Origin: Chitinophaga sp.
GTDB lineage: Bacteria > Bacteroidota > Bacteroidia > Chitinophagales > Chitinophagaceae
Assembly: GCF_039596455.1 (NCBI RefSeq)
Contig: NZ_JBCNJR010000008.1
Coordinates: 25,508 to 89,507, forward strand
DNA length: 64,000 nucleotides
Direction: 5' to 3'
Shown here: positions 31,634 to 32,161 of the stretch, in pieces
How the letters are laid out: each line of letters begins with the position of its first letter
Numbering within the stretch: position 1 is the stretch's first letter
Made by a program: the position numbers and the translations under genes
The notes under the pieces: generated by a model
Told to the model about the DNA's origin: nothing
Database searches by the model: none
The model's input: the letters and a program-made list of their open reading frames with translations, nothing else

Positions 31634-32161
31634 ATGAAAAGATCCCAAACAGTGCTTTATTTCATCATCCTCATCCTGCTCATATTGCTTATTTACCGGG
31701 AATTTGGACGGGATGGCGGCATTCCTGTAGACAAGGAAAGGGCCAGGGAGCATGTGATCCCGGTAGACGAAGCTGCGGCCTATACCAAGGCTTTTTCAAG
31801 CGCCAAAATGGAGTTGCAGAAGCAATTGCAGGATACAGGGTACCTCAACCGCAATTTTAACCTCCCCAAAGCTGAATCTTTCAACCGGCATGCTATTGCC
31901 GCCCTGCTGAATAAAAAAGGCGCAGACGGTATCAGGATCTACCTGGGCCTGAACCCCAAGAAAGAAGTGGTATTTGTATTGCTGCCGGTAGATGCGAAGG
32001 GAAAAGATATTGCGGAGAAACTGATAGCTTACGAAACGCCCTGGATACCTGGTGTGAGCAGGGCCATGGCATTGCCGCCCGCCGAAGATGCGGAGGCCAT
32101 GGAGCGTGGCCACCGCTGCCCCCATACCTGCGATCTTGAAAGCCCCGTGACCGCGCCCTGA
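31634..32161 (+). CDS. hypothetical membrane-anchored/exported protein with GIRIYLG motif and C-terminal CPxxC
   Basis: 175 aa; N-terminal hydrophobic helix; ends GHRCPHTCDLESPVTAP; first gene of a four-gene cassette. Confidence 0.8.
   Translation: MKRSQTVLYFIILILLILLIYREFGRDGGIPVDKERAREHVIPVDEAAAYTKAFSSAKMELQKQLQDTGYLNRNFNLPKAESFNRHAIAALLNKKGADGIRIYLGLNPKKEVVFVLLPVDAKGKDIAEKLIAYETPWIPGVSRAMALPPAEDAEAMERGHRCPHTCDLESPVTAP

Follow-up and report, generated by a model that had tools for sequence, protein, structure and literature searches.

A four-gene signaling cassette of Bacteroidota with a membrane-anchored Cys-pair protein as a candidate auxiliary subunit of a sensor-less histidine kinase

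Two-component kinases that lack a sensor domain rely on partner proteins, and few of the partner sets are understood. Known sets come mostly from Firmicutes and Proteobacteria, and accessory-protein ("three-component") systems such as LiaF-LiaS/R and YycH/I-WalK/R are examples of this arrangement; LiaS is a HisKA_3 intramembrane-sensing kinase with a NarL-type partner. The closest architectural parallel to the locus described here is SaePQRS of Staphylococcus aureus, in which an autoregulated promoter drives expression of a lipoprotein, SaeP, and a membrane protein, SaeQ, that assemble with the intramembrane-sensing kinase SaeS into a ternary complex and activate the phosphatase function of SaeS (PMC5083920). 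Accessory proteins also modulate kinases elsewhere, as QseG does in the QseE/F system (PMC6075780, PMC12691602) and HbpS in the SenS/R system (PMC4991794). The subject of this analysis is a 64,000-nucleotide (nt) stretch of Chitinophaga sp. DNA (assembly GCF_039596455.1, contig NZ_JBCNJR010000008.1, positions 25,508 to 89,507), referred to as the window, in which a gene for a 175-amino-acid (aa) membrane-anchored protein with a conserved Cys-pair tail is followed by genes for a seven-transmembrane (7-TM) protein, a histidine kinase, and a response regulator. An earlier note had labeled the anchored protein a putative ligand; comparative analysis indicates that it is more likely a helper subunit of the signaling system than a secreted peptide signal.

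Like SaePQRS, the Chitinophaga cassette comprises four genes in an operon that opens with the genes for a small anchored extracytoplasmic protein and a polytopic membrane protein; the kinase lacks an extracytoplasmic sensor domain, and the auxiliary genes appear to stand under an autoregulated promoter. The extracytoplasmic location is read from sequence only. The likeness is one of architecture and not of homology, as neither of the two window proteins matches any Pfam or NCBIfam family. Differences include the number of transmembrane (TM) segments in the membrane protein (seven here, four in SaeQ) and in the kinase (one here, two in SaeS), the domain types (HisKA_3 and NarL here, HisKA and OmpR in Sae), the gene order (P-Q-S-R rather than P-Q-R-S), the diderm Bacteroidota host, and the conserved Cys-pair tail. 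The other accessory-protein systems share with the cassette an extracytoplasmic or membrane accessory protein encoded together with the kinase. They differ in having no match to the anchored family, in that the cassette combines two accessory proteins of novel families, and in its possession of a leaderless subfamily.

Conservation and control of the four-gene cassette

A scan of one genome per species yielded 70 loci, in which cassette order was checked by tblastn with the four window proteins. The order anchored protein, 7-TM protein, HisKA_3 kinase, and NarL/LuxR regulator, all on the same strand, was found in 67 of these loci, from sources including Chitinophagaceae, Mucilaginibacter, Puia, and Segetibacter, with intergenic gaps mostly of 0 to 60 nt. 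When open reading frames (ORFs) were clustered over all loci, the four cassette genes were the only ones common to the loci, and flanking genes were syntenic only inside subclades of 14 loci or fewer. Co-inheritance of the four genes extends over three orders and over both the exported and the leaderless subfamilies of the first protein described below. A literature search found no description of the four-gene cassette, which is an undescribed but architecturally familiar multicomponent signaling system.

Two of the four proteins belong to recognizable families. The regulator is the most conserved member of the cassette, with 54 to 97% identity across loci. The kinase begins about 7 residues ahead of its TM helix and has a conserved H box (DLHD) and conserved N and G boxes; its best NCBIfam similarities include LiaS, far below cutoff. 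Because this kinase has one TM helix and no sensor domain, its sequence indicates that it is by itself unable to sense outside the membrane, and its input must come through partners.

The 7-TM protein has no such family. Twenty-four members compared with Pfam at E ≤ 1 gave no match and carried no AgrB, CAAX, or rhomboid signature, and the best hit among PDB sequences was iRhom (E = 0.12). Conserved residues are E45, E69, W80, W101, E104, N136, N149, F152, N193, and N197; none is a His, and C155 is not invariant, falling below 90% in a wider alignment. Given the lack of a conserved His and of database matches, a reading as protease or sortase was rejected. The TAG stop of the 7-TM gene and the kinase start 6 nt further on share a frame (positions 32850 to 32861), an arrangement that could resemble a split kinase or pseudogene; this was ruled out by the presence of two separate genes in all 70 loci, and a read-through query (259 to 824 aa) found no 7-TM homologue fused to a kinase. 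Median Kimura distances were 1.10 for the anchored protein, 1.21 for the 7-TM protein, 0.69 for the kinase, and 0.42 for the regulator, which puts the anchored and 7-TM proteins at two to three times the evolutionary rate of the other two.

A short inverted repeat, GTA-N4-TAC, is present in the 200 nt preceding the first gene at 62 of 68 loci, compared with 3.9% of background 200-nt windows. Its usual position is about −93 from the ATG, it is kept in the aligned upstream regions of 16 Chitinophaga loci, and four Mucilaginibacter loci (L054, L055, L058, and L061) carry three copies at a spacing of about 22 nt. Because the repeat is conserved upstream in so many loci, we propose that it is bound by the cassette's own NarL-type regulator, and the pattern suggests autoregulation of the cassette. 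The columns of a TAnnTTGCA box nearer the start codon are likewise conserved across the 16 Chitinophaga upstream regions, and we take this box to resemble the Bacteroidota −7 element TAnnTTTG (Table 1).

Another GTA-N4-TAC copy, GTACTAGTAC, occurs at positions 38522 to 38531, just upstream of a convergent giant gene (34362 to 38489, minus strand). Since the repeat is overrepresented across the whole window, with 24 matches compared to 6.3 expected, this placement does not establish a regulatory link between the cassette and the giant gene.

Evidence for transcription comes from a single soil metatranscriptome, in which contigs were 95 to 98% identical to positions 31503 to 31836 and 31984 to 32134. 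The contigs weakly indicate transcription of the anchored-protein gene in a close relative, with DNA carryover as another possible source.

Table 1. Features of the cassette and its upstream region, in window coordinates
Feature	Position	Strand	Evidence
GTA-N4-TAC inverted repeat GTATTTATAC, candidate operator of the cassette's NarL-type regulator	31540..31549	.	Upstream comparison
TAnnTTGCA box and CACTCACAT, probable promoter −7 element and transcript start region	31597..31617	+	Upstream alignment of 16 Chitinophaga loci
Anchored-protein gene, 175 aa	31634..32161	+	ORF call
Signal-anchor, residues 1-29 (MKR, 16-residue hydrophobic segment, REFGRDGG)	31634..31720	+	Sequence
Alpha/beta core, residues 30-127	31721..32014	+	AlphaFold2 pLDDT 86-95, conservation
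Variable low-confidence linker, residues 128-153	32015..32092	+	pLDDT ~61-68, top-residue fraction 0.37
Conserved tail EAMERGHRCPHTCD, residues 154-167, with Cys162 and Cys166	32093..32134	+	Best-conserved segment
7-TM partner, 221 aa, seven hydrophobic segments, no known family	32187..32852	+	Pfam, PDB, alignment
Histidine kinase, 246 aa, single N-terminal TM, HisKA_3 and HATPase_c, no input domain	32859..33599	+	PF07730, PF02518
NarL/LuxR-type response regulator, 222 aa	33641..34309	+	Pfam Response_reg and GerE

The anchored protein and its Cys-pair tail

Searches with the anchored protein returned 62 homologues from a word-index search and, from a full HMMER pass, 186 homologous representative clusters (50% identity) at E ≤ 1e-3, 69 of them at E ≤ 1e-10. 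Named sources are all Bacteroidota (Chitinophaga, Segetibacter, Puia, Flavitalea, Ferruginibacter, Ginsengibacter, Mucilaginibacter, and Nibrella), and among these relatives the C. alhagiae orthologue is nearest to the window protein (89% identity). The anchored protein and 35 relatives matched no Pfam, NCBIfam, PHROG, or PADLOC model, and no significant hit came from searching a family profile against the full set of PDB sequences (best AliC, E = 0.75). Source records call the homologues "hypothetical protein," save one UniRef entry (homologue P0024) labeled "DUF4252"; that label was rejected when 0 of 35 members, P0024 included, matched Pfam DUF4252 at E ≤ 1. No second copy of the gene was found within the window. 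The family is real, sizeable, and undescribed in Bacteroidota, and its homologue counts together with two invariant Cys columns place it far above chance expectation.

The earlier note had read the protein as a hydrophobic N-terminal anchor, a compact alpha/beta core, a flexible Pro/Ala linker, and a C-terminal GHRCPHTC tail, and most of this anatomy is borne out. The translated ORF begins with MKRSQTVLYFIILILLILLIYREFG, with a basic start and a hydrophobic segment at about residues 6 to 21. The core contains the strings ESFNRHAI (81 to 88), GIRIYLG (99 to 105), and VFVLLPVD (113 to 120), and a stretch rich in Pro, Ala, and acidic residues (AMALPPAEDAEAM) occupies residues 145 to 157. GHRCPHTC was found at residues 159 to 166, with the Cys162 codon at 32117 to 32119 and the Cys166 codon at 32129 to 32131. 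It lies near the C terminus but not at its extreme end, as the nine residues DLESPVTAP (167 to 175) follow the second Cys.

Across the family the tail reads E-x-G-[QH]-R-C-P-x-x-C. In a 35-sequence alignment G159, C162, and C166 were invariant and P163 and E157 nearly so, and in a 61-sequence alignment with a mean column identity of 29%, C162 and C166 were the sole invariant columns. A 313-sequence alignment retained E157 in 276 sequences, G159 in 290, Q160 in 236, R161 in 251, C162 in 286, P163 in 299, and C166 in 280. All 69 orthologues translated from genome and metagenome loci carry the Cys pair, spaced as CX3C in 56, CX2C in 11, and CX4C in 2. Because CPxxC is thus conserved among homologues, it is a real family feature, and the earlier note was right that similar CPxxC-ending proteins occur in Bacteroidota. 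The tail is also the best-conserved segment by other measures: its mean top-residue fraction (residues 154 to 167) is 0.66, compared to 0.59 for the core and 0.37 for the linker, and pairwise identity within the Chitinophaga clade is 0.78 in the tail, 0.71 in the core, 0.58 in the helical part, and 0.47 in the linker.

The Cys pair is not universal. Between about 10 and 17% of representative clusters lack it and retain E-x-G-Q-R-x-P, for example as GQRQP at the end of the protein or as SQRVPPWP. Of two such Cys-less variants looked up, both precede a homologous 7-TM gene, one in a complete cassette and the other on a contig cut off within that gene. Because the Cys-less clusters keep E-x-G-Q-R-x-P, this sequence appears to be the core of the motif, and the Cys pair a very frequent but nonobligatory addition. 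The complete Cys-less cassette (L083, 4001 to 6522), with SQRVPPWP in its first protein, has a 7-TM partner that has lost two conserved acidic residues, with Ser at the E69 position and Asp at the E104 position; this single case hints that tail and 7-TM cavity may covary.

In two-domain members of the family CPxxC follows each domain, so that one copy of the motif is internal. One such member, the 258-aa leaderless protein P0192, was observed on a short contig (L081, 19 to 795), where a convergent helix-turn-helix (HTH) gene and no 7-TM gene lies directly downstream. For distant tandem members, a location away from the cassette is therefore possible.

AlphaFold2 with a 146-sequence alignment modeled the protein at a mean pLDDT (predicted local distance difference test score) of 82.6, with 86 to 95 in the core blocks and 61 to 68 in the linker and tail, in agreement with a compact core and a flexible linker. 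Predicted elements are a long helix at residues 44 to 64, short helices, and a beta-hairpin formed by residues 99 to 106 and 111 to 119, with isolated, low-confidence beta-bridges at residues 156 and 160 to 161; near-invariant core residues are E81, F83, N84, R101, Y103, G105, and D125. Foldseek searches with this model found no match in the PDB (best E = 0.4, TM-score below 0.25) or in BFVD (best E = 0.23), and as modeled the core fold is without a detectable solved relative. Recurring weak matches to adenylate-forming enzyme subdomains, SnoaL, and PAS were rejected at TM-scores below 0.25, and the Foldseek output of an earlier 35-sequence model with a pLDDT of 69 was treated as noise.

The N-terminal segment varies in type across the family. 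In the window's Chitinophaga subclade the hydrophobic segment contains no Cys (LLILLIYREF), and in most orthologues outside that subclade a Cys closes the segment to give a lipoprotein-type signal, with the preceding residue sometimes an atypical Q, R, or K. For the window protein an uncleaved signal-anchor with the N terminus in and the domain out is predicted, because MKR precedes the segment and a net neutral charge follows it; topology was read by eye from the charge distribution. Since a lipid anchor has been replaced by a TM anchor while the domain was retained, the sequences suggest that the domain works on the outer side of the inner membrane.

A tree of 127 representatives resolved two clades with 98% local support, one mostly exported and including the window protein, and one mostly leaderless. 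Leaderless proteins are about 125 to 130 aa and start directly at the first helix, and inspection of maximal ORFs revealed no hidden upstream signal peptide. At five of six distinct leaderless loci the gene is followed by a homologous 7-TM gene (about 217 aa), a HisKA_3 kinase, and a NarL regulator, and the sixth is an orphan. By eye, the two subfamilies look alike in the loop charge pattern of the 7-TM protein. Of 183 leaderless members, 128 have a third Cys where the window protein has residue 97, and exported members usually have the pair only.

The two subfamilies also differ in how the tail is joined to the core. In leaderless relatives it follows only about 35 to 38 residues after the core. 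In exported members the linker is about 14 residues longer and holds an extra insert with an IPG[IV]S-A-A motif; PG[IVL]x was found in 54 of 105 exported members, compared to 1 of 89 leaderless members. The AlphaFold2 model alone leaves the choice undecided, but the short leaderless spacing, together with the extra insert in exported members, favors a tail that belongs to the domain rather than a flexible appendage.

Leaderless loci provided two further observations. One metagenome contig (L080) carries two complete leaderless cassettes in convergent orientation, at 5001 to 7471 (plus strand) and 7540 to 9941 (minus strand), whose first proteins are 42% identical and both end in RCPxxCPPxSxLN. 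A conserved four-gene cluster adjoins leaderless cassettes in L074/L075 (4265 to 5762), L077 (4023 to 5682), L078 (3226 to 4809), and L079 (2152 to 3765, minus strand) and is absent from the window and from exported-type loci. It encodes a 251-aa protein without a Pfam match, a DUF5675 protein (phrog_1501) with an HPAN...GCIAP motif that by eye resembles that of an L,D-transpeptidase, and a pair of small membrane proteins (71 and 61 aa); Bro-N and HTH_17 genes lie nearby in L077. Judging by gene content, this cluster could be a leaderless-type regulon or part of a mobile element.

Proposed role and alternatives

By analogy with the accessory-protein systems, we propose an auxiliary role for the anchored protein: as a subunit facing the periplasm, it would serve as a co-sensor or feedback modulator and work jointly with the 7-TM protein to influence the kinase. 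We hold this proposal at about an even chance. The protein would be held on the periplasmic face of the inner membrane by its uncleaved signal-anchor, or in most orthologues by the lipoprotein-type signal. The input-less kinase would receive its input through the 7-TM protein and the anchored periplasmic domain, both probably induced by their own system, and the two proteins would jointly set its kinase/phosphatase balance. The tail would form the last beta-strand of the domain and a small knob, closed by a Cys162-Cys166 disulfide in the oxidizing periplasm and lying beside the conserved Arg161; together with E81, R101, Y103, and D125, it would make up a conserved functional surface. In the periplasm the pair would be expected to form such a disulfide, which could be structural or could respond to redox state or metal. 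The inferred parts of this model are the topology, the disulfide, any physical contact between the anchored protein and its two membrane partners, the way in which regulation runs, and the stimulus.

Support for an auxiliary role comes from the four-gene synteny in 67 of 70 loci combined with a kinase that has no sensor domain. The change of anchor type with retention of the domain supports a role at the inner-membrane surface, and because GTA-N4-TAC recurs at about −93 in 62 of 68 loci, the protein is probably under the control of its own system, as SaePQ are. The strong conservation of the tail, its low-confidence beta-bridges, and the repetition of domain with tail as a single unit in tandem members also count in favor. 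Evolutionary rates add weak support, as the anchored and 7-TM proteins have the highest residual rate correlation of any pair (partial r of 0.40 after the kinase and regulator signal is removed), a covariation that comes without a valid significance test because the pairs share a phylogeny.

That last limit counts against the proposal, and so do several other points. Autoregulation is also typical of pheromone circuits and does not discriminate between them and an auxiliary subunit. Flanking genes are not conserved and hence give no pointer to a stimulus or regulon. A tail pLDDT of only 61 to 68 does not settle whether the tail is an integral strand or a tethered peptide. The leaderless sister subfamily, with the same 7-TM, kinase, and regulator partners, is hard to fit to one periplasmic contact surface, and this existence of cytoplasmic and periplasmic versions of one domain serving the same membrane partners is the main unexplained observation.

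One alternative is that the CX3C pair is itself the input, a thiol-based sensor of periplasmic redox or disulfide stress or of a thiophilic metal such as Cu(I) or Zn(II). The highly conserved Cys pair would fit such a sensor, as would the third Cys of many leaderless members, which a cytoplasmic metal site would have. The sequence C-P-x-x-C-(P) matches the CX3C copper site of Sco-type chaperones in Cys spacing and in its proline, and leaderless members often read RCPDxCPP. The CX3C of SCO1/SCO2 is discussed in PMC7254062. This resemblance is confined to local spacing, as there is no SCO1-SenC Pfam match, and no Sco or thioredoxin entry occurs among the top 50 Foldseek PDB matches of the model. 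The window's clade adds His160 and His164, from which the earlier note had considered a Cu/Zn-binding H-x-C-x-H-x-C site; this idea is weakened because both residues are restricted to that clade, with Q most common at position 160 and P, D, or T at position 164 elsewhere in the 313-sequence alignment. Sco-type chaperones also have a conserved distal His that binds copper; in the 35-, 61-, and 313-sequence alignments no conserved His column was seen. The varied Cys spacing, the Cys-less variants that still precede a 7-TM gene, and the absence of conserved metal-resistance or Dsb genes nearby also speak against a thiol input, which we consider unlikely.

It is similarly doubtful that the protein belongs to the output side and not the input side, as an effector or protective protein of the periplasm that is merely cotranscribed with regulatory genes. 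Its place as the first gene of a probably autoregulated operon, its rapid evolution in company with the 7-TM protein, and the lack of any other conserved target gene linked to exported-type cassettes are all compatible with an output. However, an effector would not be expected to be inherited with the same three partners across three orders and both subfamilies, with only one of six distinct leaderless loci lacking them, and a domain of 15 kDa that has no enzyme-like match and carries a short conserved tail is unlikely to work as an effector on its own. An output role would also leave the kinase with the 7-TM protein alone for input, which is possible.

The label that the earlier note had attached to the protein, a ligand whose tail might be a cyclized signal peptide, gained no positive support. 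On this account the protein would be the precursor or carrier of a peptide that is cut from it, perhaps closed into a ring by its Cys residues, and detected by the 7-TM protein together with the kinase. The model system for such a circuit is Agr, in which AgrD is a precursor of about 46 aa whose leader is amphipathic, whose central Cys forms the thiolactone, and whose acidic tail serves recognition, and AgrB is an endopeptidase with catalytic His and Cys residues. The cassette resembles Agr in being a four-gene, apparently autoregulated unit that combines a kinase and regulator with a polytopic membrane protein and a small protein containing Cys, and autoinduction circuits are likewise autoregulated. 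A tail on a flexible, variable linker would suit a released peptide, leaderless relatives would fit a dedicated non-Sec processing or export route, and two paralogous cassettes stand back to back on one metagenome contig.

The details depart from that model at each step. The putative precursor is a folded protein of 175 aa rather than about 46, and its motif is C-terminal and conserved rather than variable. Pheromones are normally the most variable part of their precursors, and here no segment is better conserved than the tail, which shows 100% identity in the window protein and its 89%-identical C. alhagiae orthologue. The 7-TM partner has neither the conserved His nor the protease signature of an AgrB-like enzyme, and its C155 is not invariant. 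The kinase is a single-TM HisKA_3 protein rather than a 6- to 7-TM HPK10 protein such as AgrC, and the regulator is of the NarL rather than the LytTR type of AgrA. The motif is internal in tandem proteins, and Cys-less variants still occur in cassettes. NHLP/Nif11-type precursors of ribosomally synthesized and posttranslationally modified peptides are no better a fit, with no NCBIfam or Pfam match, a conserved rather than hypervariable tail, and no maturase or peptidase-containing ABC exporter among the four genes conserved at the loci. The tail is probably not cut off and released as a peptide, and a precursor or carrier role is quite unlikely.

A variant of the same idea leaves the tail attached. 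The cassette would then be a bacterial tethered-ligand 7-TM receptor, in which the linker-held tail is an agonist or antagonist that inserts into an acidic cavity formed by E45, E69, and E104, intramembrane residues with which the conserved Arg161 could pair. Docking would be governed by a stimulus received by the folded domain or the Cys pair, and the state of the 7-TM protein would be passed laterally to the single-TM kinase; leaderless proteins would be the same device working from the cytoplasmic side, or would reach the periplasm by non-Sec export. We regard such a receptor as distinctly improbable.

The anchored protein, a proposed auxiliary subunit of a sensor-less kinase, belongs to a cassette that is compact, strictly coinherited, and widespread in soil and rhizosphere Bacteroidota (Chitinophagaceae, Mucilaginibacter, and Cytophagales). 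Two of its four proteins represent undescribed families, and its candidate operator makes the proposed control directly testable with a reporter. The split between exported and leaderless versions that keep the same membrane partners is unusual, and explaining it would show how accessory proteins are coupled to intramembrane kinases.

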